Shown here one piece after another: positions 9,629-25,066 of a DNA stretch of 64,000 nucleotides. Origin of the DNA: Pirellulales bacterium (GTDB taxonomy: Bacteria; Planctomycetota; Planctomycetia; Pirellulales; DATAWG01). The number at the start of each line of letters is the position of its first letter. The stretch's first letter is position 1. The position numbers and the translations under genes were made by a program. A model generated the notes under the pieces. It searched no databases and was not told where the DNA came from. It saw only the letters and a list, made by a program, of their open reading frames with translations. Location of the stretch: positions 13,671 through 77,670 of the forward strand of contig DATAWG010000122.1 in NCBI GenBank assembly GCA_036267355.1, given 5' to 3'.

Positions 9629-10204
9629 ATGCCCTCTTCGCGTTCTCCTGCCGCCAAGTCGCCACTCGCAGCAGGCACGGAACCCGGGGTCGATCATGCG
9701 CGCAATCTCCGCCGGCTGATGGCCCGGCAGGGGCTCACGCTCCGCGAACTCGCCCGGCGCAGCGGACTGAATCTGCGCACATTGAAAACCATGCTGCGCG
9801 GCAACCATCGGCCGCATGGCCGCACGTTGCAACGCTTGGCTGCCGGCTTGGGCGTGCCGGTCGACGAGCTGTTTCAGGATCCGTCGCTGTTGGTGCATCG
9901 ACTCTTCGACCGGCGGACGAATCCGGTCGTCGATCAAGTAGTGGACGAAGAACGGGAACTGTTCCACGGCTGGACGGAAGCGGAGTTTGCCGATCTCTAT
10001 AGCCGCTTCGGCCACGGCGGCCCGCTGACGCGCGACGGCACGATTGCCGTCGCCCATGCGATCAACCTCCGCCGAAGGGTGCAACAGCAAGTCGCGCTGC
10101 TGTTGGAAACCGGCGAAGCCGAATTGTTCGTCGACATCATCGATCTCTTCTACCGCCGAGTGCTCGTTGTTGACGCGGACGATGACCACGGATCACACCG
10201 ATAG
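9629..10204 (+). CDS. XRE (Cro/C1-type) helix-turn-helix transcriptional regulator
   Basis: ARNLRRLMARQGLTLRELARRSGLNLRTLKTMLRGNHRPHGRTLQRLAAGLGVPVDELF is a canonical HTH_XRE domain. The C-terminal ~100 aa are uncharacterised. Confidence 0.75.
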   Translation: MPSSRSPAAKSPLAAGTEPGVDHARNLRRLMARQGLTLRELARRSGLNLRTLKTMLRGNHRPHGRTLQRLAAGLGVPVDELFQDPSLLVHRLFDRRTNPVVDQVVDEERELFHGWTEAEFADLYSRFGHGGPLTRDGTIAVAHAINLRRRVQQQVALLLETGEAELFVDIIDLFYRRVLVVDADDDHGSHR

Positions 10205-10313: not shown

Positions 10314-10334
10314 TTGGCCAAACGCCGCGATGTG

Positions 10335-10712
10335 TCATCCGTGGTTATCGATCGCTTCCCACTTGCCGAGCGGGCAGCTTTGGTCGGCCCAGGCTAATTT
10401 GTTGAAAAAGCTGCGCTGCTGGCGAATGCGGCAACCGCAATCCGCGTGGCGGCAGATCGCGCCGTCGAACAGCGGACACGCTTTGCAGATTGCCAGCCGG
10501 GCGTCGATCTGCTGTTGGGTGCATGCAGGCATTCCCATTGCGAAATGGCGGATGGCCGAGCGTGCGAAGTTCGTCGCTCGCTTGAGCGCGGAAGGTCCTC
10601 CGGCAGTCGCGCGACCGCACCGGCACATCGGCGGCCGTTTCGAGGCGTGCGCTCTTTGCCCACATACCACGCATGTCCATCCATCTTGTGTCGCTGTGAA
10701 TTGGCAGTACAT
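10335..10712 (-). CDS. Cys-rich putative zinc-binding protein (126 aa), last gene of the phage-derived operon
   Basis: Internal ATG of track ORF 10335..10943. The ATG at 10710-10712 shares one nucleotide with the upstream stop (TGATG). N-terminal zinc-ribbon-like WTCVVCGQ...CRCG. C-terminal CKACPLFDGAICRHADCGCRI...SCPLGKW. Confidence 0.6.
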   Translation of the reverse strand: MYCQFTATQDGWTCVVCGQRAHASKRPPMCRCGRATAGGPSALKRATNFARSAIRHFAMGMPACTQQQIDARLAICKACPLFDGAICRHADCGCRIRQQRSFFNKLAWADQSCPLGKWEAIDNHG

Positions 10713-11179
10713 CAGAAAATCGGCGCGACAGTGATCGCGTCGGGCGTGCCGGTGCAGATCGTCGGGCTGCCGGAGATAAATGGGAGTGTGTAGGTCTCGG
10801 TGCAATCGAACGGCGAATCTAGCGAAATCGACCAGACGAAAAACGGCGGTTCGCCACCGTTGAAGCCGAGCGAAAATTTGATTCCGCTGCTCGAAAGCAC
10901 CAAAAATCCCTGGGCAAAGATAAAGGCCGGATCGCCGGTGCAAGACACTTCACCGAAATTGAAATCATACGTACAGCCAGGGCTCAAGCTCGCGATGGCG
11001 GAAGCATCGTTCAAGAAGCCGCAGGAACATGGTTGCTCGGCAGGCGGATAGCCAACCTCGACCGAACCGTCCGTGAAGCCGTCGCCCAGCGTGACTTGAT
11101 ACTGCGGCGGCGTTGTCCCGGCGCATCCGCACACCGAGCCGCAGCAACAATTTGGACTGAACTTGCTGAACCCGCTCAT
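10712..11179 (-). CDS. Phage-cluster protein with an N-terminal Cys cluster (155 aa)
   Basis: Internal ATG of track ORF 10712..11554; ATGA overlap with the upstream stop (11176-11179). MSGFSKFSPNCCCGSVCGCAGTTPPQYQVTLGDGF..., remainder beta-rich. No known family recognised. Confidence 0.6.
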   Translation of the reverse strand: MSGFSKFSPNCCCGSVCGCAGTTPPQYQVTLGDGFTDGSVEVGYPPAEQPCSCGFLNDASAIASLSPGCTYDFNFGEVSCTGDPAFIFAQGFLVLSSSGIKFSLGFNGGEPPFFVWSISLDSPFDCTETYTLPFISGSPTICTGTPDAITVAPIF

Positions 11180-11808
11180 GACGGGCAACTCGCCGCGAAG
11201 ACATACCAGCGTTTGGATTGCAAGTGTTGCAGGATCATCACGGCGGTTCCGGCCGCAAGTGTGTCGCCGCTTGAAAGCAGCCAGTCGTATGCGGTGACGC
11301 TGCAGCTCGAATCCTCCGTGTCGCCGCTTGTGGAATTGATTTGCCACACCTCGACGGTCGCCGAGCCGCCCGCGGAAAGAGTCGTGCTCAATTTGCCGAA
11401 ATGCCATTGCACGCCGGGCAGCGGAATTCGCTGTCCCGCCGCGGGATGCCAATACGTCAGATGCCGCTCCCCGGCCAGATAAAGCGATTGCTGCGCATCG
11501 GCGACATGTGCCAAAGCAATCGGCGTGGCGTTGCCGTCGACCGCCTCGATCCATGGATCGGCGTCGCTCGAATCGAAGCCGAACAGCGTGGCCGTCTTGT
11601 TCGTGTCGTTGGCTTCGACGGTGTCGATCAGTTCGACCAGATCGAATCCGCTATCGCCGGCAATCGCGATATTCAGGCCGAACGCGCCGGCTGTGATCTG
11701 GAGCGGATACGCCGCCGAGATCCGCATCGCACGGCGCAACTCGCTCGATACCGAATTGGCCCAGCCTGCGGTGATCGGATCGCCAGGATGCACGTGTCGG
11801 GGCGCCAA
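11176..11808 (-). CDS. Putative tail fibre/receptor-binding-like protein (210 aa)
   Basis: TTG start preceded by GGGAGG 7 nt upstream. The N-terminus HVHPGDPITAGWANSVSSEL resembles the conserved N-terminal motif of many phage fibre proteins. Gly/Ser/Thr/Asp-rich beta-type composition. Position is distal in the tail module. Confidence 0.5.
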   Translation of the reverse strand: MAPRHVHPGDPITAGWANSVSSELRRAMRISAAYPLQITAGAFGLNIAIAGDSGFDLVELIDTVEANDTNKTATLFGFDSSDADPWIEAVDGNATPIALAHVADAQQSLYLAGERHLTYWHPAAGQRIPLPGVQWHFGKLSTTLSAGGSATVEVWQINSTSGDTEDSSCSVTAYDWLLSSGDTLAAGTAVMILQHLQSKRWYVFAASCPS

Positions 11809-11829
11809 CGATCAACCTCCCGTCGAACC

Positions 11830-12678
11830 CTAATTTCCGAATTGGAACAATTGCGACAAATCGGCCGATTGGAACGGCGCGGCGCCGGTTTGCACCGACA
11901 CGATCCGTTGCCAATTGTCGTTTCCGGCGCCGGCGTCGCGGCGATAGAAATAGTTGTGGCCGTAGACGGTGTCCGGATCGAGCGTCGAGAGCACCGTCTT
12001 TACTTGGAATTTGTAATCGACGCGCCATAGTGGCGTGTTGTTCACTTGGAATTCCCGCTCCCAATTTGCCCCGATGAACAGCACCTGTTCGGTGTCGTAG
12101 CCCATGAACGACGCGTTGTTCACGCAGCCGCGCGTTTGCCGCATGCCCGACCATGGCGGCTGCGGCACCCAGCGCCACGACAAATTGATCGATTCCTCGG
12201 GAATCAAAATGCCGGGCGTGAAATCGTCTTCGACGCTGGTTCCGTCCGGCCATTTCCAGGTCCGGCCCGGCAGGCTCATATACTGAGCACCGACATCGCC
12301 GGTGGCAACAAGAAACGTTCCGTTGGGCACCGGCGGCAAACGACCGTCGGTCAAGGGAAATGGTTTGTACGTAACCGTCACCCGGGCGTAGTTGTAGTTC
12401 ACTTGAAAGCCCGCCAGGCTGATCGGCGATTCGAGCGGGCTGTCCGGCTGGAAGGGATCGATTTGGATGTCGCTCGGCCACATGCCCGGCAAGCCGTAGA
12501 AGCTGGCCGTCGGCATGTAAGAAATTTGGCTGCCGACGGCGATCCAATAACCCCACAAATCACCGACAAACGCCGGCCAATCGCCCCAGTTGATCTTGAA
12601 GACGCGCACACCGGTCATATCGCGGCGCGATAGCGAAATGCGTGGCGAGCCTTCAAGTTCTTCGAAATCGACGGGCAT
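11830..12678 (-). CDS. Putative tail tip/baseplate-like structural protein (282 aa)
   Basis: ATG ORF; Trp/Tyr/Pro-rich beta-type composition. It is the largest ORF downstream of the capsid gene. Assignment is by position only. Confidence 0.5.
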   Translation of the reverse strand: MPVDFEELEGSPRISLSRRDMTGVRVFKINWGDWPAFVGDLWGYWIAVGSQISYMPTASFYGLPGMWPSDIQIDPFQPDSPLESPISLAGFQVNYNYARVTVTYKPFPLTDGRLPPVPNGTFLVATGDVGAQYMSLPGRTWKWPDGTSVEDDFTPGILIPEESINLSWRWVPQPPWSGMRQTRGCVNNASFMGYDTEQVLFIGANWEREFQVNNTPLWRVDYKFQVKTVLSTLDPDTVYGHNYFYRRDAGAGNDNWQRIVSVQTGAAPFQSADLSQLFQFGN

Positions 12679-12754
12679 GGGAGAAGTGGTCAGGGGACAG
12701 GGGGACAGAGATCAGAACAGGAGGACGGCGGCGGGGTGGTCGGGATGCCGATGG

Positions 12755-13228
12755 TTATAGACCTTCGGAGAAACGGGCGAGCGTTTGAGAGCCGATCGCC
12801 TGTCCGGTGTGCTGGGCGGTCGTGAGCAGTTCGTCGAATCGGCTTAGCAGATGACGTATCGCATCGCGGAGTTTTTCAGTCTCGGATGATGTTTCAACAA
12901 AGCATTGCGGGATGGTGGCATTGGACGCCGCAGGCGGCTCACTTGCTTGCTCATCGACGGCCGCCAGGCGGTCGGCGATATAGACCAGGCTTTCGACACC
13001 TCGATGCGGTTGCGATCTTTGTTCTTCGCTGCGGTGGCCCCGACGCTTTGCCAACTGTTCTTCGATCCAACGGTCGCGCTGGCGAATTCGATTGGCGTGG
13101 AACTCGGCCGCTTCGTTTGGGGCCAATAGAACCGACTCGCCGGCGTCGGCTGTTGGCAGCAAAAGGATCTTCAATTGCGAGGGGCAGAATCGTGCGACCG
13201 ATTCGGGCCGAACGCCGGCGCGAATCAA
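12755..13228 (-). CDS. Helical phage-cluster protein in the -1 frame relative to the upstream gene (possible chaperone extension or very short tape-measure-like protein)
   Basis: The only start is TTG (13226-13228), overlapping the upstream TGA (13225-13227) as TTGA. Charged helical sequence (RIRQRDRWIEEQLAKRRGHRSEEQR). Confidence 0.4.
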   Translation of the reverse strand: MIRAGVRPESVARFCPSQLKILLLPTADAGESVLLAPNEAAEFHANRIRQRDRWIEEQLAKRRGHRSEEQRSQPHRGVESLVYIADRLAAVDEQASEPPAASNATIPQCFVETSSETEKLRDAIRHLLSRFDELLTTAQHTGQAIGSQTLARFSEGL

Positions 13229-13779
13229 ACTGCGGAAAATAAAGTGCCAAGGAATCGGTTTGCCGCGGCCGGATGCATCGACGCCCGGCCGCGGCTCGGC
13301 AACTTTCCCGGCGGATATTCTCCACTCGATTCGGAGGCGATCGCCATTGTTTCGGAAATCTCATCTGCTCGCTTGCCAAATCGCTCTTGAATCTCGGCCA
13401 GCGTCAAGTGCGGCTGCATGCGGCGCAATCGCAGCCACAGTTCGAAGAGAACCCCTTCGTCGCTGCGGAACCAGGCAGCCAATTCTTCCCGCGAGACTCG
13501 ATCGCCACGGCGCATGTCATCGAACGCTCGCTGCAGAATCTCTTTCGGCATCGGCTCCGATCGGTCCGCGACCGTTTCCCGCAAAGAGTGCAATGAACTG
13601 CGTCGCGCGCTCAACAAACGCCGCTCGATCTCGGCATAATGGCCGAGCGTCAGCGGCGCCAGCCGCAGCAACTGCCCATCGATCTCGATCGGCACCGAAC
13701 CCGGAATGATTACAAAAAGCCCTTCCATGCTCATCTCCGTCTTTCCTTCGCTTCGTCGTATTTGCGTATTTCGTGTCAT
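13225..13779 (-). CDS. Putative tail assembly chaperone-like protein
   Basis: Lies immediately downstream of the tail-tube-like gene. The likely true start is the ATG at 13728 (GGAG 6 nt upstream) or 13734. Helical, charged sequence. Assignment by position. Confidence 0.45.
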   Translation of the reverse strand: MTRNTQIRRSEGKTEMSMEGLFVIIPGSVPIEIDGQLLRLAPLTLGHYAEIERRLLSARRSSLHSLRETVADRSEPMPKEILQRAFDDMRRGDRVSREELAAWFRSDEGVLFELWLRLRRMQPHLTLAEIQERFGKRADEISETMAIASESSGEYPPGKLPSRGRASMHPAAANRFLGTLFSAV

Positions 13780-13817
13780 TCGTGGTTATCTCTTCTTCCG
13801 TGCCGTTCCGTCACGGT

Positions 13818-14204
13818 TCATGGCAGCGACGGTTCGGTCCAGGCCCCGTCGGTATCGAAATCGGCGACGCCGCCGATCACTTCACCCGTGTCGATATTCA
13901 CTTCGACTTTGAATGTTTTTACGAGCGCGGGCACCGTGTAGAAATGCGTGGCGTCGAGATGAAGTAGTAGCGTCACCGCGCTGCCTTCCACGATCGGCGA
14001 GCCGGCCGAGAGGTCGAATTTGAATTGAATCGCCCCGCTGCCGGATTTGACGCCCGAAAGGCTGCGCTTGAAGCCGCCGGTGGCACTCGACGCATAACGG
14101 CTCGAAACGGATTCCTTGTTGAAAAGCCATTTGGTCACCTCCGCCACCGGAGCGGAGCCGATCAACACCTGCCCGTTCTTGCCGGAAATTGGTTGCGTTG
14201 ACAC
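13818..14204 (-). CDS. Putative tail tube-like protein (128 aa)
   Basis: GTG start. All-beta composition (AIQFKFDLSAGSPIVEGSAVTLLLHLD...FKVEVNIDTGEVIGG). Size and position are similar to short major tail proteins. No direct motif proof. Confidence 0.45.
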   Translation of the reverse strand: MSTQPISGKNGQVLIGSAPVAEVTKWLFNKESVSSRYASSATGGFKRSLSGVKSGSGAIQFKFDLSAGSPIVEGSAVTLLLHLDATHFYTVPALVKTFKVEVNIDTGEVIGGVADFDTDGAWTEPSLP

Positions 14205-14228
14205 GCTCGGATTCCTTGCTGAATCGCG

Positions 14229-14741
14229 TTAGGAGGAGATACCCAGGACGACGATGCTGTACGTGATCGAGTCGGGCGACGTGTTCGAGACGCGAAGAAT
14301 CTTGTGCGTCGAGTCGACCGCCCAACCATCTTTTTTGCTCGACAACAACAGGGCGCTATCGGCGCCAATTTGCAGCAGCGATGCGGCGGATCCGCTGAAG
14401 GGAGCGGTGCATGCGTCGGCGACCGAGGAATCCAACTGCAGTGTGTCGCCGGAAGTTGTGGAGGTGTTGACCAAAAAAATTGCCTTGACGCTCGCCAGGT
14501 TGATCGAAAGCGTCGAGCCGAAAAGCGAATGCGTCAGATTCGTGAGATCGAGATCATCGTTCGTCCCCGCGGCAACCGTGCGTTGATCGGACCAGATCGT
14601 GTCGGCCTGATCGGCGGCCGAGCCGTTTGCCAGTTGATCGTCGTAGCTCAGTTGCGACGCGTCGCCCACCGTCGTCAGCGCCAATGGCTCTTGGAACAGC
14701 CAATTGATCGATGCCTTGATTTCGCTCGCCAATGTGCTCAT
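14229..14741 (-). CDS. Phage-cluster structural protein (170 aa)
   Basis: ATGA overlap with the upstream gene (14738-14741). Ser/Thr/Asp-rich beta-type sequence. Confidence 0.5.
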   Translation of the reverse strand: MSTLASEIKASINWLFQEPLALTTVGDASQLSYDDQLANGSAADQADTIWSDQRTVAAGTNDDLDLTNLTHSLFGSTLSINLASVKAIFLVNTSTTSGDTLQLDSSVADACTAPFSGSAASLLQIGADSALLLSSKKDGWAVDSTHKILRVSNTSPDSITYSIVVLGISS

Positions 14742-15169
14742 CCGGAAATCCTCGCGCAAGAGTGAAAAATGCGAACATCAAAATCGCGGGCGACCATCCA
14801 CACGCCGTCGTCTCCGTTTTCGCGTTCGATGTGATTGGCCGGCCGCATATCGAGCACCCGTCCGCCGGTCCACAGAAAATCGCGCCGATTGAAATAGCGT
14901 ACGATCATCGCTTCGATCCGCCGTGCTTCTTCGTAACTGGAGCTATAAACCGCGAACCGCACCGCTTCGGTCGCACAGGTCGTGCCGCTCGAGCTCCGTT
15001 CGAGTTGCGATTCGCCCTGCACCGACATACAGACGTACGGAAACCGGACCGGCAATTCAGCGGCGTCGCGGATCGGCGCAAGCCCCGTGTAAAGCTGCTC
15101 GATTGGCACCAAATTCAACAGCGGCCGATAGCCAGACCAATGCTCATGAATCGCGCGTTCGGCAGACAT
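14738..15169 (-). CDS. Putative tail completion/terminator-like protein (DUF3168-like, tentative)
   Basis: 143 aa. The FPYVCMSVQGE...AVRFAVYSSSYEEARRIEAMIVRYFN pattern resembles neck/tail-terminator proteins. Position is between the head-tail adaptors and the tube-like gene. Confidence 0.45.
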   Translation of the reverse strand: MSAERAIHEHWSGYRPLLNLVPIEQLYTGLAPIRDAAELPVRFPYVCMSVQGESQLERSSSGTTCATEAVRFAVYSSSYEEARRIEAMIVRYFNRRDFLWTGGRVLDMRPANHIERENGDDGVWMVARDFDVRIFHSCARISG

Positions 15170-15274
15170 GGTGGAGGAAGGGTGAGGGTGAGGGTTAGGT
15201 TTGTTGGATGCGTTTTTCGGTGACGCTACGCCGGCAGACTGCTTCGTTCCTCAAAGCCTCACAGTCTCACAGCC

Positions 15275-15919
15275 TCAAAGCCTGCGCAGCGCGTTGATCG
15301 TGAACAGGCTGGCGATCGAATCGGCGAGTTCGTAGCCGGTTACTTGGTAGATCGCGCCATCGGCGGCTTGAATGCGATTGCCGTTGTCGACCAGGATTTG
15401 CTGAGCCAAGTAGATTTTAGTGGTGACAATTCCCGATTGCCGGCCGTGCTGTTCGCTCCGGGCCGAGGTCAGCTCTTGGATTCGCGCTCGTACGGCGGAT
15501 GCGAATGGAACGAAGGTCGGCTCGACGGCGCCGCTCGGCCCCTTGGCGGCCACTTCGCGGAGAATCGTGATGAACGTGTTCAATCCTCCAGCCAGCGCGA
15601 GATTGCGGGCCGTGCATTTCCAACGCGAACCGCAAGTCGCAAGCTGCGTTTCGAGAATCGTCCACGCTTCGCCGCTCGTATCGACGATCTGATCGCCGAG
15701 TTGCGGCGGGGCGTTCAATTCCGCTGCGGCAAGGTGCCAATGCACATCGCTGGTCGTATATTTTCCGTCGCTCGCGGCAGCTTCTCGAGTGTTCACCGCG
15801 CGGCGTAGCGCTCCGGCAAGCGCCGTGGCGCCGGAGCCGTCGCATCGCCGCAACGTGGCAGGCTCGAGCGCGTCGGTCACGAGCGCGAAATCGGCTTGCG
15901 GATTGAAACTGGCGGTCAT
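15275..15919 (-). CDS. Phage-cluster head-tail joining region protein (214 aa)
   Basis: Internal ATG of track ORF 15275..16021; its ATG shares one nucleotide with the upstream TGA (TGATG at 15917-15921). Confidence 0.5.
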   Translation of the reverse strand: MTASFNPQADFALVTDALEPATLRRCDGSGATALAGALRRAVNTREAAASDGKYTTSDVHWHLAAAELNAPPQLGDQIVDTSGEAWTILETQLATCGSRWKCTARNLALAGGLNTFITILREVAAKGPSGAVEPTFVPFASAVRARIQELTSARSEQHGRQSGIVTTKIYLAQQILVDNGNRIQAADGAIYQVTGYELADSIASLFTINALRRL

Positions 15920-16134
15920 CACGTGTATCCCTGCGATCGGACTTCGAATGGATCCAGACCGATCAACTTTGCATCGCACCAATCGACGGCCGCTTCCACC
16001 GAGCGGATGTAGCTTTCCCAAGAAATGGTTTGACCGTCGATGGTGTAGGTCGGCTTCGGATTGGCCCGCAATTCAACGAGTTGCGCCAGCGCCATGCTGC
16101 GGATCGTTTCGATTTGTGCTCGATCGTTTTGCAT
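15919..16134 (-). CDS. Small phage-cluster protein (71 aa), head-tail connector region
   Basis: ATG ORF coupled to the downstream gene. KPTYTIDGQTISWESYIRSVEAAVDW resembles small phage head-completion proteins (recollection only). Confidence 0.45.
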   Translation of the reverse strand: MQNDRAQIETIRSMALAQLVELRANPKPTYTIDGQTISWESYIRSVEAAVDWCDAKLIGLDPFEVRSQGYT

Positions 16135-16192
16135 TCAGACACCTCGAGGGCCATGCATTATGGAACCAAGCTCTTGCAGCTCGGGCCGTTGT

Positions 16193-16522
16193 TCAGCCCT
16201 TGCTAGAAAGTTCGACGTTGCCAGCCGCGTTGGCCACCAGCTTTAGCGCGCCGTAGCTCGAGCAATAATCGGGGATCGGATAACCACCGCCGGCCGCGAC
16301 GGTTTGCGTGACGGCATGCCCGTCGCCATCTTGGATGGCCACGTACGTGCCCCCCGGCTGAATGGCGCCGTAGTACGTCAGGCTGGTGATCGGTGAGCCG
16401 CCGGGCACGAGCACACAGCCGTTCGCCACTTCGGTAAGATCGATTTCGGCGGTCGTCGATAGGTTGTTGGTCAACGCAAGCGCCGCGACAAACGCATGAT
16501 GGCGCCGGATGCGATTCGACAT
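16193..16522 (-). CDS. Small phage-cluster protein (109 aa), possible head decoration/accessory protein
   Basis: ATG ORF directly downstream of the capsid gene; Gly/Thr/Ala-rich beta-type composition. Confidence 0.45.
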   Translation of the reverse strand: MSNRIRRHHAFVAALALTNNLSTTAEIDLTEVANGCVLVPGGSPITSLTYYGAIQPGGTYVAIQDGDGHAVTQTVAAGGGYPIPDYCSSYGALKLVANAAGNVELSSKG

Positions 16523-16666
16523 GTGGATGGCCTTGATGGATGAATCCGCTTAGAGGCGGACAATAATTCACGGCAGACGGGGAAACAGCGGGTCCACAGC
16601 GGCGGCGGGCTATGCGACCGCGCCCGGCCGCCGCGTATCTGATCATCGCGTCTCACAGCTCGGCCC

Positions 16667-17848
16667 TCAGGAGGCCGAGTTCTGCACGACATACCGAGGT
16701 TCGAGCGTTGCCGCGGCGCCGCGTTCGCTCGCTTTGAAGCGGATCATGATGTCTTGCGTGAACTCGGCTTCGCTGTTGAGCGGAGCCTGCGTGACGGTGA
16801 TGCCCCAATTTTCCATGTAGGCAAACGCCTTGCGGAAATTGCCGAGATACCAGTTGCTCGTCGGCTCGCCGGCCAGGCTCAACCGTGCTCGCAGCAACCG
16901 GCTGGAGACGACGCGATAGCTGCCGGCCATCGGATTCGGCGCAAACGTGCGAACGGTGCTGGCGTCGGCTCGATTATCGACTTGCTCGATTTGCGTCGCG
17001 CTCACGATCCGCCGAGCGGCATGCAACAGCTCGGGGCACACGAGGATCGTGTCGGCGTTGACGATAATCGGCTCGCCGGTATTCGGATCGAGAATGTTGG
17101 CCATCACCTGCTCGGCCGCATCGACATCCGACCAATCCACGAGCGGGTTGTTCGTCTTGACGTTGATCCACGGGGCCGACGATTGATAGGTCGCGTAGCT
17201 GACTCCCTTCCAGTTGTAGCGGGCGTCGGTCGTGTTTCCGTCGATGATGCAATCGAGCAGGCGTTTCTCCTTGTTCAAGCCGAGAAACTCGCCGACTTCG
17301 CCGGCGCGCTGCAAAACGAGATGCGTGCGGTCGAAGAAGATCGCCTCCTTGGTGACCGGCACGATCATGCCGCGCTTCGTGGTGGCGGGCGTTTCGATGT
17401 AGTCTTCCGTCAGGCCGACGTGCGGGTAGACGGCCCCTTCGTCGATCGCTTCGGCCATATCGCCCATTTGCCCGATGCCGGGTATTTTTTCGCCGCTGAA
17501 ACGAGTCGGAATCGTTTCGACGATCTGCGAGGCAACGAAGGCCTCGGAGGTGAATCCCTCCATGATTTTCGAGTAGATGATCTGGCCGGTGATATTGCTG
17601 AACGTGGCCGTATCGACGGCGTCGGCAGCTTCGAGCAAATCGACATTCCCGGATTTCGCGCGCGGATCGAGCAATCGCAGAAACTCGCGGCCATCGGGAA
17701 TCGTGGCCTCGGCCAGATCGCGCAACGAGAAATCTTCGGGGCGAAGATGCTTTTCCGCCAGCGCATCGCGCAGATGGCGGCAAGCTTGTTGCGGCCCCAT
17801 GGTTTCGTAGAGGCGTTTGAGTTCCCGGTAGTTGACGGCTCGCGTCAT
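16667..17848 (-). CDS. Major capsid protein (HK97-fold type)
   Basis: Track ORF 16667..17887; ATG at 17848 has GGAG 8 nt upstream. 393 aa with typical capsid composition. It sits downstream of the portal and protease/scaffold genes; sequence includes ...TKRGMIVPVTKEAIFFDRT... and ...NWYLGNFRKAFAYMENWGITV. Confidence 0.8.
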   Translation of the reverse strand: MTRAVNYRELKRLYETMGPQQACRHLRDALAEKHLRPEDFSLRDLAEATIPDGREFLRLLDPRAKSGNVDLLEAADAVDTATFSNITGQIIYSKIMEGFTSEAFVASQIVETIPTRFSGEKIPGIGQMGDMAEAIDEGAVYPHVGLTEDYIETPATTKRGMIVPVTKEAIFFDRTHLVLQRAGEVGEFLGLNKEKRLLDCIIDGNTTDARYNWKGVSYATYQSSAPWINVKTNNPLVDWSDVDAAEQVMANILDPNTGEPIIVNADTILVCPELLHAARRIVSATQIEQVDNRADASTVRTFAPNPMAGSYRVVSSRLLRARLSLAGEPTSNWYLGNFRKAFAYMENWGITVTQAPLNSEAEFTQDIMIRFKASERGAAATLEPRYVVQNSAS

Positions 17849-17919
17849 GAAATAAGCTCCGAATTTGTGGTTCGAATCGAAAGGCAAGGAGAATCGCTTG
17901 AAGAACAGCGCGCCGTCGG

Positions 17920-18612
17920 TTAGCGCAACTGATAGGCAGCCACGTAGTCGACGTTGAGTTGCTCGCCGTTGGCGCTGCCGTTTTGGATGCCCAGCAGCGG
18001 CCGCATGACCGGGGCGGACGCAAAGCTGAACACCTGCTTGACCACCAGCAAGCCATCGATGAAGAATCTCGCTTCCGCCTGCGTGGCGCTGATCGGTTCG
18101 AACTGGGCCGTGAGCGTTTGTGGATCGCCGCCCGCCGGAGTGGAAGTGACCGTGGTCAGTTGCGAACTGCCGACCGAGGTCTGGCAGCCCCAGAGGTTGG
18201 TTCCGCCCTGCTTGAAAAACGTCATGCCGGTGTAGGAGGTCGCGGGGCCGCCGTTGTTTTCCAACAGGCTGGTCGTCGGGCTGGAAGTGTCCGAAAACCC
18301 GACGAGCACATTGGCCTGGTTCGCATTGGCTTCGGTGAACTGCACCAGCGCTTCGAAAACGATCGGTTGGTTCGCCTGAAACTGGAAGACGAATCCCGTG
18401 CCGCTCAAATACATGGCATCGTTGGCGGCCGCGGCGCCGGCGCTCGGCTCGATCATCAGCAGGCCGTTCGGCTCGGCGCCGACCGTCATGCTGCCCGTGC
18501 CCGTTTCCGACGAGGCCCAGCGCTCGCCGGCGACGAAATAATCGAAATCGTCCATGTAGCCGAACGTGCGGCGATACTTCAATTGATCCAACAGGTCGAC
18601 CAGCTTCGTCAT
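17920..18612 (-). CDS. Phage head-module protein of unknown role (230 aa, beta-sandwich-like composition)
   Basis: ATG with AAGGAA upstream. Lies between the protease/scaffold and capsid genes. No helices or motifs recognised. Confidence 0.55.
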   Translation of the reverse strand: MTKLVDLLDQLKYRRTFGYMDDFDYFVAGERWASSETGTGSMTVGAEPNGLLMIEPSAGAAAANDAMYLSGTGFVFQFQANQPIVFEALVQFTEANANQANVLVGFSDTSSPTTSLLENNGGPATSYTGMTFFKQGGTNLWGCQTSVGSSQLTTVTSTPAGGDPQTLTAQFEPISATQAEARFFIDGLLVVKQVFSFASAPVMRPLLGIQNGSANGEQLNVDYVAAYQLR

Positions 18613-18678
18613 GACAGGATTCCTTGATTGCTAGATAGAGTGAGCGAACGATTTGGTGGGGAAGCCGGACTCAGGCGA

Positions 18679-19665
18679 TCAGAGAGCCGTGATCCGCTGG
18701 GCGAAGCTCTTTGGATCCCCCGGCGACCACGGCAACTCTTTCGATTCGACCGAATGCTGGTCTTTGCTGGTCGGCCGGGCGGCGCCGAACGCGCGGGCCA
18801 GTTGCAGCCGCTCGAGAATCAGCCTTTGCCGGCCGGCGGCGTCGGCGGTCGCGCGCAATTGCTGGCGGAACAATTCCGTTTCCAGCGGACCGGCCACGCC
18901 CGCGGCTGTCAGCTCCTCCGAAATCTGGTGCTCCAAGAGCGCTGCGTCGCGCTGGGCACGCAATTGCTCCAATTCGGCGCGGAGCTGTTGAAGCTGAGCT
19001 AGCGCGGCTATCTCTTGCGCGCCGGCCGCCGGGCCGCTTATCGATGCCGCGGGTTGCCGGGCGCCATGCTCCAACAACAGCGATTCGACCAGATCGGGCC
19101 GATCCGACTTCAGCCGATCCAAAGTCAACTCTCGGATCGCCGATGGCACGGCAAGATTTTCTTCCGGCGGCGTCTGTTGACGTTGCTCGTATAAACCGCG
19201 TGTCGTCGCGGGGTCGGCCACCAAGTCGACGCTCTGCACCCGGGTGATTTCTTCGACCAGCAGGCCATCGTCGCGGCGCGATGTGCGGGCCTGCACATTG
19301 TGTGAAAAGCCGACATTCTCCGGAGCGTGCTCGGCGTCCCAAGCCAACTGTTCGGCCAACACATGCTTGGGATTGAAATGCAAATCGCCAAACAGTCCTT
19401 CGTTCGGCTTCAACGCCGCGCCGCGTATCACGCCAATCCGATCTTGATAATCGCGCGGTGAGAGCGGGCTTCCCTTGGGATGGTTTACGTTCACCTTGGC
19501 GCCTTCATAGAGCGGAACCGCTTTGGCCAATGCCTCGGGCAGATATTGCCGGCCGTTGCGCGACTGGAGGCCAAGAATCTTCACGCCGCGAATTATCCCC
19601 GCCTGCCGATCGACGCGCATCGCCACGTTTCGCGAATCGCAGAATTCCTGCAAGAGTTCGTTCAT
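18679..19665 (-). CDS. Putative prohead protease / scaffolding protein
   Basis: ATG with GAAAGGAA upstream. The N-terminal globular domain (GVKILGLQSRNGRQYLPEAL...VNVNHPKG...DLVADPATT) is followed by a coiled-coil tail (LAQLQQLRAELEQLRAQRDAALLEHQISEEL) typical of scaffold segments. Position is between portal and capsid. Confidence 0.6.
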   Translation of the reverse strand: MNELLQEFCDSRNVAMRVDRQAGIIRGVKILGLQSRNGRQYLPEALAKAVPLYEGAKVNVNHPKGSPLSPRDYQDRIGVIRGAALKPNEGLFGDLHFNPKHVLAEQLAWDAEHAPENVGFSHNVQARTSRRDDGLLVEEITRVQSVDLVADPATTRGLYEQRQQTPPEENLAVPSAIRELTLDRLKSDRPDLVESLLLEHGARQPAASISGPAAGAQEIAALAQLQQLRAELEQLRAQRDAALLEHQISEELTAAGVAGPLETELFRQQLRATADAAGRQRLILERLQLARAFGAARPTSKDQHSVESKELPWSPGDPKSFAQRITAL

Positions 19666-19810
19666 GCCATTCCTTTCCGTCGCGGATGCTCATCGCATCG
19701 AGCGAGCAAAATCCAAGAAAAAAAGCCCAACTACGGCGCTACCTTGCGACCGCAGTGGGCTTGCGCTCGAAACCGGGATCAATCGGCTCGAGACAATACT
19801 GATGTTTTTT

Positions 19811-19894
19811 GAAGCAGGCACACTGCGTGCCGACCGCCACGGCCAGGGGATGCTATGCAGCACACGCTACGGCACACGGAGCGTGCCCGCTACT
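19811..19894. repeat. REP/MITE-like element, 'GGCACAC..GTGTGCC' family, inside the phage-derived cluster
   Basis: GAAGCAGGCACACTGCGTGCCGACCGCC ... CTACGGCACACGGAGCGTGCCCGCTACT, immediately after the stop of the 19895..20077 gene. Confidence 0.75.
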
Positions 19895-20077
19895 TCACTT
19901 GTCGATGCGCTCGATCAAGCGACGAATGTGTTGGATCGTGCCATCTTGAATCGCCAATTCGATCGCCGCCTTGCCGTAAAAACCGCGGCGGAGCGATTCC
20001 GACAAAATTTCCGCCATCGCCGCTTCAAGTTGATCGACCTTCGTCTTGTTCGTCGGCGTGTCGCTCAGTGTCATCAT
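19895..20077 (-). CDS. Small phage-cluster protein (about 60 aa)
   Basis: Track ORF 19895..20092 (TTG); tandem ATG ATG at 20072-20077. Helical charged sequence downstream of the portal gene. Confidence 0.4.
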   Translation of the reverse strand: MMTLSDTPTNKTKVDQLEAAMAEILSESLRRGFYGKAAIELAIQDGTIQHIRRLIERIDK

Positions 20078-20107
20078 GGCATAAGTATACAAAAGTTCAT
20101 TACATTT

Positions 20108-21598
20108 TCAAGCGCCGAATTGAGCCACTCCCAGGGCATTCGACGCGCTTGCGTCGAGCGGCAAGGCGGCGGCGTCGATCTCGATCGGCTTTTGATTTTC
20201 GCGACGGCGCGCGGCGTGGGCCGCGAGGTTGGCCTGCTCTTGGCCGTAGTCCAAGCCGAGACGCTGGCTCCACGTTTGCGGCGATAGAATGCCGGCGGCA
20301 TTTTCGATCTGGAATCGCTGCGTCTCTTGCAATTGATCGCGGACGGCCAGCGTGGGCGCGACGCCCGCGATATCGATCGCGGTTTGCACTTCGCTCGGCA
20401 ACCGGCCGGCCACAACCGCATTCAGCACCACGCGCCACATCACCTGCAGATCGTCGGCCACTTGTTCGGCTTGCAAGCGCTGAAACATGCGCATCGCCGG
20501 GCCTTCGGCGATCATCGTCGAGGAGTAGTTGGCGTTCGAGGCGTCGGAGCTGAGCATGAATTCCGGCATTACCAGCCGCGCGGCGATCGCCCGCAGCTCG
20601 GCTTGCAAGATGGCCACGAAGTTGGCGGCATCGATGCCGGCGGCGGGAAAGTCGTAATCGACGTCGGCCTGGGCGTCGAGGATGGTGCCGGGCCCGTAAC
20701 GGCGGAAATTGGCCGATTGCCCGGTGACCGAATTCGTCACGTTCACATCGGCGCTGGCGGCGACGAATTGCTCGACCGCCCCGCGATTGCTGCGGTGATG
20801 CTTGCGAATCAGCGCGATGGCCGATTGAATCTCCGCCACCACACTCATATTGCGGAGCAGCTTTTCGGCGCGGCGAAGATTCTTGCGCACCGCGAAGTAA
20901 AGCGGCAGTCCGCGGCGAACATTGGCGTCGACATTCGCCTTGCGATGCTGGATCTGATCCGCGTCGATCGCCTGGCCGTCGACGTAGTAGGCCAGAACGG
21001 TTTCAACATCGTCGGGATCGGTGAGGACGCCGAGTCTGGCGGCCGGATTCGCTGCCTGATCGGGAGGAGTTGCGACCTGGCCCGGTTCGACGAAGCGCAC
21101 GCGAGTGGCGCCGTCGGCCGAAACAAAAAACCGTAGAAACACTTCGCCATCGCGGTCGCGGCGAAGCACGATTTCTTGTTGCCGCCGCTGCCAGTTGTTG
21201 GCCTGGATGAATTCATCGAGAACGGCTTGCACGGCCGCCACCCATGCCGCCGGAACCTGCTGGCCTTTCTTGGCGGCAGCGGAATAGGTGTGGCCGGCGC
21301 CGACGATGAAGCTGATCCGGTTTTCATGCCCATTGATCGCGAATTCGTTGCCGAGGGCCAATAGCCGGCATTGATTGCGAATTTCGCGAAGCTGCGTGTC
21401 GCTCGTTGGCCCCCAACCAAACGGAGCACCGACATCGGCATCGAATCCGACCGGGAGCCACGGCAAGCCGTCGACGTCGAACATCGCATCGCGCGGATCG
21501 ATGAAGCTGCTCCACAATTCTTCATAGGCCTCTTGGAGACGGCGCTCGAGCCGATTTAGAGTGGCGTCGTTACCCTTCAAATGGTTCGGCTGGGGCAT
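20108..21598 (-). CDS. Phage portal protein
   Basis: Track ORF 20108..21817; ATG at 21598 is preceded by GGAGGTGA. 497 aa, immediately downstream of TerL, with portal-like size and composition. Confidence 0.75.
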   Translation of the reverse strand: MPQPNHLKGNDATLNRLERRLQEAYEELWSSFIDPRDAMFDVDGLPWLPVGFDADVGAPFGWGPTSDTQLREIRNQCRLLALGNEFAINGHENRISFIVGAGHTYSAAAKKGQQVPAAWVAAVQAVLDEFIQANNWQRRQQEIVLRRDRDGEVFLRFFVSADGATRVRFVEPGQVATPPDQAANPAARLGVLTDPDDVETVLAYYVDGQAIDADQIQHRKANVDANVRRGLPLYFAVRKNLRRAEKLLRNMSVVAEIQSAIALIRKHHRSNRGAVEQFVAASADVNVTNSVTGQSANFRRYGPGTILDAQADVDYDFPAAGIDAANFVAILQAELRAIAARLVMPEFMLSSDASNANYSSTMIAEGPAMRMFQRLQAEQVADDLQVMWRVVLNAVVAGRLPSEVQTAIDIAGVAPTLAVRDQLQETQRFQIENAAGILSPQTWSQRLGLDYGQEQANLAAHAARRRENQKPIEIDAAALPLDASASNALGVAQFGA

Positions 21599-21641
21599 GG
21601 TCACCTCCTGTTTTGAGATTGGGTTCATCTTGTGAGCAGCA

Positions 21642-21704
21642 CGCGTGAAACCGCGAGCGAGCCTCCTCGCGGCCAGGGTATCGAAGCTCGCTTGCGGTTT
21701 CGCG
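21642..21704. repeat. REP-like hairpin, 'GAAACCGCAAGCGAGC' family, in the TerL-portal intergenic gap
   Basis: CGCGTGAAACCGCGAGCGAGC - 23 nt - GCTCGCTTGCGGTTTCGCG. The same architecture occurs at 27223-27287 and 25067-25129, with a half copy at 37722-37742. Confidence 0.8.
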
Positions 21705-21722
21705 TCGGCCGGTTCGAAAAAA

Positions 21723-23344
21723 CTAAACGCTGATCGGCAGCCGGTCGCCCAAGCCATCGCCTCGGCCGCGACGGTCGAACCACTCGGCCGCGAGGCGGAT
21801 TGCCATTTCGAGCGCATCGGGGCCGTCGTCGTGATCGGCCAGTGGAAATTCTTTTAGTTGCTCGACCAAGAGCCGCGTGCCGGGCGAGCCCGACTTGAAT
21901 TTGATTCGCCGGTTCGACAGGTACGGGCCGAGCCGGCGGATGCGGGTCTCTTTATTCACGCGGTTTTCGACGGCCCAGGGAACGATGCCGATCAGTTTTT
22001 GCCGGGCTAATTCGGCCGCGAATTCGCCGCCCAGCAATTCTTGGAATTGATTGGCTTCGATGCCGAATATTTCGGGACGAAAACGGCGGCAGAGGTCGAC
22101 GCCGTCGGAGACGATTTGCGGGGTCGGCCGGCGAACCAAATCCGCATCGACATAGAGCACGCCCAGCCGATCGACCGCCAACATCGCGAAGGCGGAATAA
22201 TCGCCGCGGCCCGATTCGGTCCCCTTGCTCGGATCGAGCGCCAACACTTTTAGCTGAACCACATCGGGCCAACGGTCGAACCAGAGCCAGTCGCCAAAAT
22301 ACGATTCGGGCCATTCACACAGTTCTGGATTGATCGGCACATTTTGCTTCTCGCGCTCGAATGCCGTTCGCCCGCCTTCGACGCGCATGCACATCAGCGT
22401 GTATAGATCTTCTTCCTCAGGCCAAAGCAGCATGGCGCCGGCGTTCATCTCGGCCTGATGGGCCGCGTAGAAATCGAGCGCGGCTTGCCGTGCGTCGGCG
22501 CGGTCGATTTCGGCATAGATGCGTTCCCATCGGTCCCATAGATCCATATGGTCGGGCCAGCGCTCGATGGCCTGAAAGATGCGCGATGTCCAACCGGGCG
22601 TGGCGTGCAATTCCATCGCCAGCGCTTCGCGGTGCAGGGCGGTGGCAAGATTTACCACGTTGGTGCGCTTGGTGCCGGCCTTCATCAACATGCCGTGGAA
22701 CCAGCGGCGCGAATGATCGCGGGCAAGGCTCGATTCGATATGCCGGTCGTCTTGAATATCGTCGCACACGATCAGCGTCGGCCGATCGGCGCGGCGGCGA
22801 CGGCCGCGGATGCGCTGGCCGGTGCCGAAGGCTTCGATCGTCACTCCATTGGCCAGCCGCACAGTGTTCTCGCGCCACACTTGTCCCGGTTCGGCCGCCT
22901 TGGGGTAGGCCGCCGTGAGGCGCGGATTGTCGTGCAGCTCGCTTTTCAGATTCTCCAGATGGCTGACGGCCTGGTGCTTGGCGTCGGACACGATCCAGAT
23001 ATACGGCTCGCGTGCTTCCACTGCGGCGCGGAGCACGAAGGCCAGCGAGCCGATCGTCGATTTCGCTCCGCCGCGCGGCCCGACGACGTTCAATTTTTGT
23101 CCGCGGGCCGCGTGCATTTCATCAAGGTGCGCCGCCATCCACCGGTGCATTCGCGAAGGGGCCAAGCGAACATGCTCTGGCAGAAAAGCGCGGGCCCAAT
23201 CGAGCAAGCCGGCTGGATGAAGACCGGTCGCCCCCGCATCGGCGGCCGCCATGCCGCGCTCGATCGATTCGCGCAGCAATCGAAAGCAGCGCTGGACCAC
23301 TTCGGGCGCGGCATCGCGGCGGCTGGGTGGCAAATCGTTTCGCA
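21723..23344 (-). CDS. Terminase large subunit
   Basis: Internal ATG (MRNDLPPSRR) of track ORF 21723..24020, 3 nt after the TerS-like stop. Walker A NVVGPRGGAKST, Walker B TLIVCDDIQDD. Nuclease motifs VLALDPSKG..DYSAFAM, GIEANQFQ, ADHDDGPDALEMA. Confidence 0.9.
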
Positions 23345-23347
23345 TGT

Positions 23348-23797
23348 CTATTTCTTTGCGCGGCGTTTCTTGGGCGGCCGATCGAAATCTTTGTCGGCCA
23401 GTTCGCTCAATCGAAGGAGTACCTGCTCGCGAAATCGTTTGACCGGCACTTCGCCGACAACCACCGTGCCCATCTCGCGAACGACTTCCGCGAGTTGCTC
23501 GGGCGTGATCGATTTTGGCGGCCGGCGGCCGTAACGATCGGGATACAATCGTTCCAAGGCCCAGGCCGAGGCTCGCCATTGCTTGGGGTCTTTCGAGGCT
23601 TGTTGGATGTTTCGCAGGAACGTGATTTCGGGCCCAAGCTCGGCCTTGCGAAGCTGATCGGCAAAGCCGGGTTCGCGAAGTGCCGTGTTGCGGATCGTTT
23701 CGACATGGCAGCCGACGTATTGCGCCGCCATGAGGCGAGTTCCGCCCACGGTGAGAATGGCGAAGACCTCGCGTTTCTTGGTCTCGTCTAGTTTCAC
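23348..23797 (-). CDS. Terminase small subunit-like HTH protein
   Basis: The GTG start (23795-23797) overlaps the upstream TGA (GTGA). [34 protein letters not shown] is HTH-like, and there is a basic C-terminal tail. Lies directly upstream of TerL. Confidence 0.6.
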
Positions 23798-25011
23798 TCG
23801 GCCGGCTCTCCAGGCCCACGCGGTGCCGAGGAGTTTTTCGAGCACCCGTCGGCGTTCGGCTCCGGTCGGCGATGCCCGCGCGGCGGACCGAGATATTCGA
23901 ACGACACCACCGCGCGGCCGGCCGAACCGTGATAGCCCGGGGCAAATTTTCCCTTGCCGCGGGAACCGTTTTTTTGAACGTGGATCGCGCGCCACAGCGG
24001 CGACTCACGGCAATGGGCAATCAACGCCGGATGGCTTGCGGTCACGTTAAAGCGATGTCCTTGGGAGCGGTGCAAATCGCCGACCGACTCGGCCACGCGC
24101 ATGCCGATGCCGATGCCTTGGTAGTCGGGGAGCGTGACGATTCGCGAAATGCGCCAATGCCGCCGCCGGCCGATCACCGGCAGCGTCGCGCAAAATGCGG
24201 CCGGCGATCCTTCCCACATCGCAAGATGGCAACGAGCCATCGGATTCAACTTTCCGCTCAAATAATGATGCTTCGCAAACAAACGCCAGACACGGCGGTG
24301 GCAACGAAAGAGGTCGAGCTGGATCGGCGGTCGCTGAAGACACCTCCGTTGAAACATGCAACTTGACATGTCGAGCACCCAGTCGGGCGCGAGCCACTCG
24401 GTGACGTCGTAATGACATGTCACCGCGACAAACCGGCATGCGATCTTGCCGCTGCGAATGGCCTTGGCGACGGCCGCGGATCCGACCTTGGCAACCGTGC
24501 GATCGACGACGCTGGTGAACTCGTCGAAAGCGAGGATTTGCGCCGCGCCGTCGCCGAGGCCAGCCGATCCATCCGCCATCGGATCGGCCGAGCCGCAGCC
24601 CGCGAGCGCATGCGCCAAATCGCAACGAAACCGCTCGCCGCCGCTGAGCACGTTGTAGGGCTTGATCCAAGACGGCGGCGAACTGAAGCCGACGGCCGTC
24701 AGCAATCCCGTGATTTCGCGGATCGATCGGTCGCCGAAGCAATCCACTACGGCCCGATCGTCGGGCCAACTGGCGTGCTCGACCAATCGCGGCCCGAACA
24801 GCCGCCGGGCGACCGTCGTCTTTCCGCTTCCCGAGGGGCCGACGATCAATCCGATTCGCCAATCGAGTTCGCCGGTTAGATCCGGCACTTCGACCGAAAA
24901 GCGTTGCGACACCTTTTCCGCGAGCGGCACATCGAACATCCCGGCCACCTGCTGAACGCGAAAGGAATTGAACACCGGACATTGGACGACGATGTCGAGA
25001 GGCGTGGGCAT
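23794..25011 (-). CDS. ABC-type ATPase fused to a GNAT acetyltransferase domain (COG2401-like architecture)
   Basis: Internal ATG (MPTPLDIVV) of track ORF 23794..25092. Walker [13 protein letters not shown] signature [15 protein letters not shown], Walker [14 protein letters not shown]-loop VTCHYD. The C-terminal GNAT motif A is [19 protein letters not shown]. Confidence 0.75.
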
Positions 25012-25066
25012 GAAGCGCGAGAGATCAGGGGTCAGAGGGCAGGCCAGGTACGCAAGCGACGCGGAA

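Follow-up and report, generated by a model that had tools for sequence, protein, structure and literature searches.

The window analysed here, 64,000 nucleotides of a Pirellulales bacterium (assembly GCA_036267355.1, contig DATAWG010000122.1), contains at positions 25011 down to 10335 a compact phage-derived cluster with genes for DNA packaging, head, and tail. This locus is probably a vertically inherited, host-maintained derivative of a ~50-kb siphovirus, i.e., a 'viriform' and a candidate gene transfer agent (GTA)-like system. Its domestication is well supported; GTA function proper, with packaging of random host DNA and its transfer, is a candidate function. In the best-supported history, a siphovirus module of head, packaging, and tail genes was domesticated once, long ago, in an ancestor of these Pirellulales and has been maintained by the host since then. 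The copy in the window is best described as a complete head and packaging set with a reduced (stub) tail and without the ParB-like gene of its relatives. An earlier note on this DNA had supposed that no such system was described in Planctomycetota, and a full-text literature search indeed found no paper; the locus is a strong candidate for the first GTA-like particle system in this phylum.

Distribution, synteny, and co-divergence

Carriers were counted by scanning a single genome of each GTDB species for a motif; relatives were found in 383 species-level genomes, and the best 80 of these were inspected. Labels such as L001 denote the relatives compared with the window (genome loci as well as IMG/VR, Logan, and other contigs); many of the metagenome-assembled genomes among them are long-read assemblies with frameshift errors. 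Architecture was compared in 39 loci with full 10-kb flanks by means of a codon log-likelihood gene caller and all-against-all clustering into families (f1, f2, and so on), and domain annotation of related loci was limited to selected flanking families. The capsid protein had 2978 database homologues, the best 120 of which were 57–96% identical to it; in 50,697 genomes of isolated phages, tblastn found nothing that matched the capsid. The best 80 of the 383 carrier genomes were almost all labelled Pirellulales or Planctomycetota, and three carriers are cultured: Aeoliella sp. SH292, A. straminimaris (ICT_H6.2), and Bythopirellula polymerisocia (Pla144). The record of L001 (CAVYQE010000001.1) is titled 'uncultured Actinomycetota bacterium', yet its capsid is 84% identical to that of the window, and the record is probably mislabelled or mis-binned.

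The recurring order in the 39 loci was as follows: ParB-like gene (family f10, phrog_620), ATPase::GNAT fusion, small and large terminase subunits (TerS and TerL), portal, g5, protease-scaffold, cement/decoration protein f3, capsid, optional genes (f24, a LamininG3 protein, and f11), g10, g11, tail genes, and an XRE-family regulator (gene numbers as in the list below). Beyond the XRE gene lay host genes: f27, metallo-beta-lactamase (MBL) hydrolase f32, solute-binding f50, DEAD helicase f36, glycosidase f30, pepT, family 2 glycosyltransferase (GT2) f57, and flavin monooxygenase (FMO) f41. The left flank of the window itself carries f41, f27, f57, and pepT, and the core order together with the XRE-side host genes recurred in lineages whose capsids are merely 58–60% identical to that of the window. 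The synteny across relatives anticipated in the earlier note was thus found for the gene order and for the XRE-side flank (pepT, GT2, f27, FMO). The adjacency to ruvB, proposed there as the conserved site, was rejected, since ruvB was absent from the 39 full-length loci. Family f27 (window 3027–4112) is a 361-aa protein with no Pfam hit and, by eye, a sigma-70-region-4-type helix-turn-helix (HTH) near the C-terminus; it adjoins the XRE gene in many relatives, its divergence tracks that of the capsid most closely (r = 0.95), and it may be functionally linked to the locus.

On the other side, the ParB-like gene of relatives is preceded by a small transmembrane/coiled-coil gene and, before that, by host genes f39/f48 or by f35-f20-f17-f26. 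For f17, f26, and f35 of this upstream stretch, neither PHROG nor Pfam pointed to a clear function, and a lysis role for them would be a guess. In L169, a close relative, a papain-like Peptidase_C1 gene (1496–2266) stands among host genes just 5' of the ParB-like gene; at this position other clades have the trypsin-like protease f20 and the small transmembrane/coiled-coil gene. All of these are possible, putative lysis or release functions.

Both boundaries of the locus were host genes in dozens of relatives. Integrase, replication, and lysis modules were not seen in the 39 full-length loci, as far as the annotated flanking families show. Furthermore, host genes stood directly 5' of g5 in L008, L017, L034, L048, L072, and L077, host-like genes lay between portal and g5 in L027, L030, and L066 (over both groups uvrC, DUF1501, aminotransferase, GFO oxidoreductase, ABC transporter, hydrolase, and DUF2339 genes), and in Bythopirellula the packaging block was inverted a few kb away. 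Host genes separating head from packaging genes would not be tolerable in a mobile prophage, which disfavours that reading.

The locus also diverged in step with its hosts. Pairwise capsid identity correlated with that of linked host genes (r = 0.95 for f27 and 0.89 for f36). Between the window and L003, the ratio of nonsynonymous to synonymous substitution rates (dN/dS) was 0.05–0.22 for every alignable cluster gene, tail genes included (0.06–0.22 for g12–g14, g17, and g18), at a dS of 0.69–1.1; the flanking pepT, exonuclease, and L9180 gave a dN/dS of 0.13–0.16 and a dS of 0.52–0.77. In the Aeoliella pair L032 and L065, dS was 0.47–1.0 for the cluster and 0.60–0.89 for glgA, the aspC-like and ino1-like genes, and the DEAD helicase. 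The capsid was more conserved than host neighbours (identity 0.91 vs. 0.63 for f32 and 0.83 vs. 0.77 for f36). Since dS matches that of the flanking housekeeping genes and dN/dS is low, the locus appears to co-diverge with the host under purifying selection, and neither a decaying nor a recent prophage would give these values. These data indicate vertical inheritance with the host and not a patchy, prophage-like distribution. Of the checks named in the earlier note, purifying selection was observed, and capsid divergence tracked that of the linked host genes. Taken with the occurrence in 383 genomes and the conserved order and flank, they favour its maintained, domesticated alternative over a decayed remnant.

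Gene content and genomic setting

The chain of about 20 co-directional minus-strand genes with short gaps was confirmed by open reading frame (ORF) listing and translation. All 20 ORFs and ~10 kb of each flank were scanned with Pfam, PHROG, and NCBIfam. The genes and the neighbouring regulator are:

23794..25011, minus strand: g1, ATPase::GNAT (ABC-type ATPase fused to a GNAT acetyltransferase), packaging-associated accessory; phrog_11143 1e-92, AAA_22/ABC_tran and Acetyltransf_1 hits
23348..23797, minus strand: g2, small terminase subunit TerS; phrog_4102 2.4e-11, GTGA overlap with g1
21723..23345, minus strand: g3, large terminase subunit TerL (ATPase and nuclease); phrog_38 8.7e-72, TIGR01630 above cut-off
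20108..21598, minus strand: g4, lambda-family portal; PF05136 7.4e-17, phrog_21 3e-38
19895..20077, minus strand: g5, conserved ORF of 60 aa in the portal–protease interval; found in 31 of 39 full-length loci, dN/dS 0.05 vs. L003
18679..19665, minus strand: g6, prohead maturation protease (residues ~1–160) fused to a helical scaffold-like C-terminus; structure model and Foldseek
17920..18612, minus strand: g7, 230-aa protein in the decoration-protein slot; no family hit, dN/dS 0.21
16667..17848, minus strand: g8, major capsid protein; PF25209 1e-16, dN/dS 0.065
16193..16522, minus strand: g9, 109-aa lineage-specific ORF; good coding score, present in L169, absent from L003
15919..16134, minus strand: g10, 71-aa conserved connector-region protein; in 37 of 39 loci, head-only ones included
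15275..15919, minus strand: g11, head completion/head closure protein; PF05521 4.9e-6, phrog_25
14738..15169, minus strand: g12, tail terminator/completion protein; phrog_347 7e-5
14229..14741, minus strand: g13, conserved 170-aa virion protein; phrog_22694 4e-20, dN/dS 0.095
13818..14204, minus strand: g14, tail-tube-like protein; weak PDB profile hits, dN/dS 0.065
13225..13779, minus strand: g15, chaperone-like; aligns to the chaperone region of prophage L168
12755..13228, minus strand: g16, possible tape-measure remnant; poor codon adaptation, doubtful as a gene
11830..12678, minus strand: g17, conserved distal-tail/baseplate-like protein; position after the tape measure in related phages, dN/dS 0.10
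11176..11808, minus strand: g18, distal tail protein; homologues in L001–L003 and L167–L169, dN/dS 0.14
10712..11179, minus strand: g19, Cys-rich terminal protein; no homologue in L003
10335..10712, minus strand: g20, Cys-rich terminal protein, start uncertain; phrog_13558 2e-7
9629..10204, plus strand: convergent XRE-family regulator, conserved end-marker of the locus; HTH_31/HTH_3

The six start/stop overlaps described earlier are exact on the minus strand (GTGA at 23794–23797, ATGA at 14738–14741 and 11176–11179, TGATG at 15917–15921 and 10710–10714, TTGA at 13225–13228). The gene order of the earlier note held for ATPase::GNAT, TerS, TerL, portal, protease/scaffold, capsid, connector, and tail genes; its chaperone-like pair looks degenerate.

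The start of g1 at 25011 is backed by the L169 homologue. Homologues of g1 in Gordonia phage NHagos are placed between a ParB-like gene and the terminase, and the order ParB, ATPase::GNAT, TerS, TerL is an ordinary phage packaging arrangement. The TerL translation shows Walker A (GPRGGAKS), Walker B (LIVCDD), and the nuclease aspartates, and AGGAGG lies upstream of the portal ATG at 21598. The AlphaFold model of g6 (pLDDT 81) had T4 gp21 (5jbl, E 2e-7) as the top Foldseek match, followed by herpesvirus proteases, and H62, S121, and H122 were invariant across 33 sequences; in the model, the N-terminal domain has the fold of the T4 gp21 prohead protease and the C-terminus consists of long helices. 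At the position of g7, for which Pfam and PHROG gave no family match, most relatives have a 157-aa Phage_cement_2/head-decoration protein (f3, PF09956). The homologue of g12 in prophage L168 matches Tail_completion_gp17 weakly, and g13 is kept even in L025, where the remaining tail genes are gone. The family profile of g14 gave weak PDB matches to major tail and XkdM tube proteins (E 0.16–0.6). The model of g17 (pLDDT 79) had no significant fold match and weak hits to baseplate and tube-initiator proteins. The structural check suggested in the earlier note thus yielded a gp21-like protease fold for g6, a weak tube likeness for g14, and no significant match for g17. Homologues of g20 are 76–129 aa long in L169, L167, and L168, and one relative has a 76-aa version. 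Profiles of g6, g17, and g13 against PDB sequences gave nothing useful, those of ATPase::GNAT and XRE gave nothing or merely generic HTH matches, and promoter and terminator scans of the locus were at chance level.

Domain scans found the host flanks as described before: an M20 peptidase gene (pepT-like, 5709–6977) and a PolB-exonuclease-like gene (7147–8031) beyond the XRE gene on one side and ruvB (25884–27158) on the other. The earlier note had taken the XRE gene for a neighbouring regulator. It is present and convergent; it is a conserved end-piece of the locus and not an incidental neighbour, as it stands in the same position in 20–21 of the 39 loci irrespective of tail type and is absent from L001–L003. 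It could conceivably be a lysogeny-type repressor.

Integrase, replication, and lysis genes were not found in the window by Pfam, PHROG, and NCBIfam scans, their absence resting on selected genes and two query recombinases. No tRNA or tmRNA was present in the 64 kb, and no att feature was found, which agrees with the earlier description. The cluster is therefore a phage-like structural set without replication, integration/excision, or lysogeny-control functions of its own, as scanned over the 20 ORFs and flanks; the hallmarks of a functional temperate prophage (integrase with att sites, lysogeny switch, replication, and lysis) were absent from the window.

The host-like base composition noted earlier was confirmed: GC was flat at ~0.60 over the window, and synonymous codon use was 0.236 for the cluster vs. 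0.248 ± 0.062 for 29 host genes. Two palindromic host repeat families (repetitive extragenic palindromes, REP), likewise reported earlier in intergenic gaps of the cluster, occur both inside and outside it, with 0 copies expected by chance:

10226–10317: REP family 1 hairpin between g20 and XRE
19869–19893: REP family 1 half-copy inside the cluster, g5–g6 gap
30727–30818: REP family 1 copy outside the cluster
21640–21704: REP family 2 hairpin inside the cluster, TerL–portal gap
25066–25129, 27223–27289, and 37726: REP family 2 copies outside the cluster
25173–25780: ~300-bp repeat array in the spacer between ATPase::GNAT and ruvB, with internal 31-nt inverted repeats GACGCAACACTAGCCCGAAGCGTAAGCGAGG

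Host-like codon use and host REPs within the cluster argue for long residence in the host. Repeats at the two ends of the cluster were considered as att sites and rejected because they belong to different host REP families. Homology with the nearest relatives ends at ~25130, where the REP family 2 copy and the repeat array begin, and the window lacks, over its full 64 kb, the ParB-like and small membrane genes of L002, L003, and L169. An independent assembly, L161 (Logan SRR11836411 contig, 14,941 bp), is 100% identical to window 10230–25170. It was rejected as an excised form, since its ends break at the REP 10226–10317 and at the repeat at 25170.

Phage relatives and the reduced tail

Relatives of the locus exist as integrated and free phages. 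Prophage L168 (GCA_028289405.1) has the g6-to-g20 order of the window and a capsid 56% identical to that of the window. It also encodes chaperones, a tape measure of 527 aa, and a fibre or spike of 994 aa; small genes form a leftward block, and a tyrosine integrase adjoins a host PQQ gene. In the ~50-kb contigs L170 and L171, a MuF-like protein and an SNF2 helicase accompany a tape measure of 550 aa and dozens of small co-directional early genes. The capsids of these free or integrated relatives are 47–56% identical to that of the window, they have homologues of g10–g14, g17, g18, and g20, and their portal-to-g20 order is the same. In the neighbour-joining capsid tree, the 80 genome loci and the window formed one short-branched clade (hereafter the chromosomal clade), and these phages and the prophage, together with other tape-measure-bearing IMG/VR contigs, were long-branched outgroups. 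Searches of the window and the 80 genome loci for homologues of the L168 tyrosine integrase, a serine recombinase, and the tape measure found none. According to the earlier note, related genes embedded in a full prophage would speak against domestication; such relatives with integrase or early genes do exist, but they fall outside the chromosomal clade and encode a long tape measure.

No homologue of the full-length, 527-aa tape measure was found in the window or the rest of the chromosomal clade. The spacing from the tube gene (or g13) to g17 varied accordingly in content:

Spacing ≤374 bp, 20 loci: no chaperone, no tape measure
Spacing 1–1.5 kb, 10 loci including the window: chaperone-like gene and a short piece
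Spacing ~2.1 kb, L039: 168-aa and 358-aa ORFs
Spacing ~5.6 kb, L072: four small ORFs, two on the opposite strand
Spacing 2.4 kb, outgroup phages L157/L158 only: 550-aa tape measure

The g15 and g16 of the window lie in different frames with a TTGA overlap; L003 has a single continuous 284-aa ORF. Their codon-adaptation scores (0.116 and 0.058) were the poorest in the cluster, 2–3 standard deviations below host genes. The pair is probably a degenerate chaperone/tape-measure remnant; pseudogenisation by a frameshift, a programmed frameshift, and an error of assembly are all conceivable. The check for inactivating mutations recommended earlier hence had a divided outcome: g15/g16 look decayed, and all other frames are intact with low dN/dS.

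The tube gene was absent in several loci of the chromosomal clade, and some lineages had a non-homologous tail module (f18, f19 = phrog_290, f21, f29, f25). A large, monophyletic, short-branched clade that includes Bythopirellula was head-only, with g10/g11 followed by XRE and no tail genes between (L012, L018, L023, L030, L035, L038, L043, L046, L051, L053, L069, L048, L066, and L075). Its gene set comprised ParB, ATPase::GNAT, TerS, TerL, portal, protease, decoration protein, capsid, g10, and g11 (short or absent in some). In Aeoliella loci, g11 was directly followed by host genes such as glgA. Within the head-only clade, capsid dN/dS was 0.04–0.05, and capsid identity was 0.88–0.93 vs. 0.62–0.75 for flanking host genes.

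Among IMG/VR contigs, 161 related ones are listed as viral. Two of them (L093/L094) show primase and serine-recombinase genes beside head genes. They were rejected as complete phage relatives because each is the chromosomal cluster with a separate ~14.6-kb element inside the portal gene, leaving this gene in two pieces, 397 aa of the C-terminus and 95 aa of the N-terminus, the latter abutting the recombinase. This integrative element was seen in L165 (3494–19549, IMGVR_UViG_3300035696_002901) and also in L093, L094, and L092, with a D5-type primase-helicase, a DUF3102 protein, an HTH protein, and a 597-aa serine recombinase as cargo; a second contig carried a Toprim primase and a ParB_N protein as different cargo at the same portal position. 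This looks like a family of elements for which the conserved portal gene serves as the site of attachment. The other IMG/VR contigs had the host-flanked architecture of the chromosomal loci.

Possible function, rival explanations, and known systems

If the locus is a host-maintained GTA-like system, its genes would be expressed under some host-controlled signal, possibly via the conserved convergent XRE regulator. The protease-scaffold and capsid would build proheads on the portal, the protease would mature them, and TerS/TerL would fill the heads with DNA. The connector proteins would then close the head, to which a very short tail, or none, would be added. Because the locus cannot excise or replicate, the packaged DNA would be largely host chromosomal DNA. 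A narrower, tentative version, to which we give a minority share of belief, is a Pirellulales packaging capsid machine, anciently domesticated, whose selected function lies in the head and not in the tail; the tape measure would have been lost at the base of the clade, and tails then shortened, swapped, or deleted. Were this true, it would be a new kind of viriform, unlike all described GTAs and mobile satellites, with tail-less or trans-tailed DNA-filled capsids or a chromosomally fixed engine launching host DNA from a fixed site.

Several points weigh against the domesticated, GTA-like interpretation. The locus is known from its genes alone, and the window copy could be partly disabled, having no tape measure, a decayed g15/g16, and no ParB-like gene. 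In many lineages the tail has been replaced or lost, a poor fit to a classical tail-dependent GTA. The absence of an integrase is bounded by the searches for it, a Pfam scan of selected genes and homology to a pair of recombinases. The genome sample was the best 80 of 383 hits, and 383 is a carrier count without a Pirellulales denominator. The capsid trees are neighbour-joining, distance-based, and midpoint-rooted, and dS is near saturation in many pairwise comparisons.

The strongest competitor, which we regard as unlikely, is a capsid-forming, tail-borrowing or phage-interfering island similar to the cf-PICIs (phage-inducible chromosomal islands that form capsids) but immobile and chromosomally fixed. 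Its capsids would be filled in situ and then given tails from another locus or an infecting phage, or phage assembly would be sabotaged, with selection on head and packaging. The head-only clade fits such an island well: it keeps head and packaging genes followed by XRE, its head genes are the most constrained (capsid dN/dS 0.04–0.05), and connector genes are kept where tails are gone; no locus of the chromosomal clade was found to have the tape measure, and several lack the tube gene. According to a preprint, tail-less cf-PICI capsids can be completed with foreign tails (10.1101/2025.02.11.637232). Nevertheless, g12–g14, g17, and g18 are present in the window and its clade with a dN/dS of 0.06–0.22, and no satellite integrase, primase, or excision functions are present.

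An inert remnant of a defective L168-like prophage, decaying without function after loss of integrase and early genes, would account for the missing tape measure, ParB-like, lysis, replication, and integration genes and for the degenerate look of g15/g16, and an integrase-bearing prophage with the same gene order does exist (L168). This explanation is largely refuted, and we hold it for very improbable: all frames other than g15/g16 are intact with a host-like dN/dS of 0.05–0.22, although neutral decay over a dS of ~1 would have destroyed them, 383 species carry the locus, its flank is conserved, and its capsid evolves more slowly than the housekeeping neighbours. Least credible of all, to the point of being nearly negligible, is a still-mobile temperate phage or satellite with integration and replication functions outside the examined region or of an unrecognised type. 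The 161 contigs listed as viral and the two with primase and serine-recombinase genes seem to speak for it, but the latter are the chromosomal cluster with the separate portal insert, the remaining IMG/VR contigs are host-flanked, host genes form both boundaries in dozens of loci, and the window-end repeats come from different REP families and hence are not att sites.

As a domesticated particle locus, the cluster most resembles the GTA of Rhodobacter capsulatus (RcGTA) and its type in Caulobacter crescentus. Common to both are a ~15-kb head-to-tail cluster with terminase, portal, small ORF, protease, capsid, connectors, tube, chaperones, and distal tail, the lack of integrase, replication, and lysis genes in the cluster, a host-like composition, and vertical inheritance under purifying selection over a whole order-level clade. 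The Pirellulales locus is not homologous, however. It has a lambda-type portal (PF05136/TIGR01539) and a PF25209 capsid, NCBIfam HK97 or GTA models gave no match to the capsid, protease, connector, or tail proteins of the window, and the features of the RcGTA-like family (HK97-type portal, protease, and capsid homologous to RcGTA g3–g5, and GTA tail genes) were not found. It also differs from RcGTA in the ATPase::GNAT gene, in relatives with the ParB-like gene, ahead of TerS, in the lack of a real tape measure, in tails swapped or lost in many lineages, and in the conserved XRE cap.

Known GTAs come from few lineages and comprise those of Alphaproteobacteria including BaGTA (Bartonella), VSH-1 (Brachyspira), Dd1 (Desulfovibrio), and VTA (Methanococcus voltae) (PMC11841831). 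BaGTA, VSH-1, Dd1, and VTA are likewise independently domesticated phage-derived particle loci, and the divided genomes of VSH-1 and RcGTA resemble the split packaging and head modules of some Pirellulales. These four systems belong to other phyla, with no expected relationship in sequence, and are defined by observed particles and DNA transfer, whereas the Pirellulales locus is, in this respect also unlike RcGTA, a candidate by gene content. The cf-PICIs encode TerS, TerL, portal, protease, capsid, and head-tail connectors of their own and no tails, the same layout as the head-only clade. Unlike it, they are mobile and patchily distributed, with integrase, regulators, and a replication module; the Pirellulales locus lacks those genes, its chromosomal site is fixed and conserved, and tail genes are present in the window copy. 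A head-only module combined with integrase, regulatory genes, and primase/replication, by which cf-PICIs are recognised, was accordingly not present in the window. The ancestral-phage relatives (L168, L170/L171) differ in a MuF-like protein, tape measure, fibre, early genes, and SNF2 helicase, all absent from the chromosomal clade; the tyrosine integrase, which among them belongs to L168, is absent from it as well.

Planctomycetota have unusual cell envelopes and few known phages, and little is known of their horizontal gene transfer. The locus bears on how often phages become host-serving particles and would be an independent domestication in this phylum, conserved across hundreds of species with a capsid evolving more slowly than neighbouring housekeeping genes. 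The relatives form a rarely visible series from a ~50-kb free phage through an integrase-bearing prophage and a cluster without tape measure to swapped or stub tails and head-only loci. The presence of the locus in cultured strains makes particle production and DNA content directly testable.

Farther to the right of ruvB, the window holds genes outside these subjects, namely MbnB and DUF2063 genes in a pair and a gene for a DUF1559 protein of the kind typical of Planctomycetota. In the pair (29694–31795), a DUF2063 (NGO1945-like) gene adjoins an MbnB/TglH/ChrH-family gene (PF05114, 7.5e-111), a pairing typical of loci for ribosomally synthesized and post-translationally modified peptides (RiPPs) or for metal-related peptide modification.

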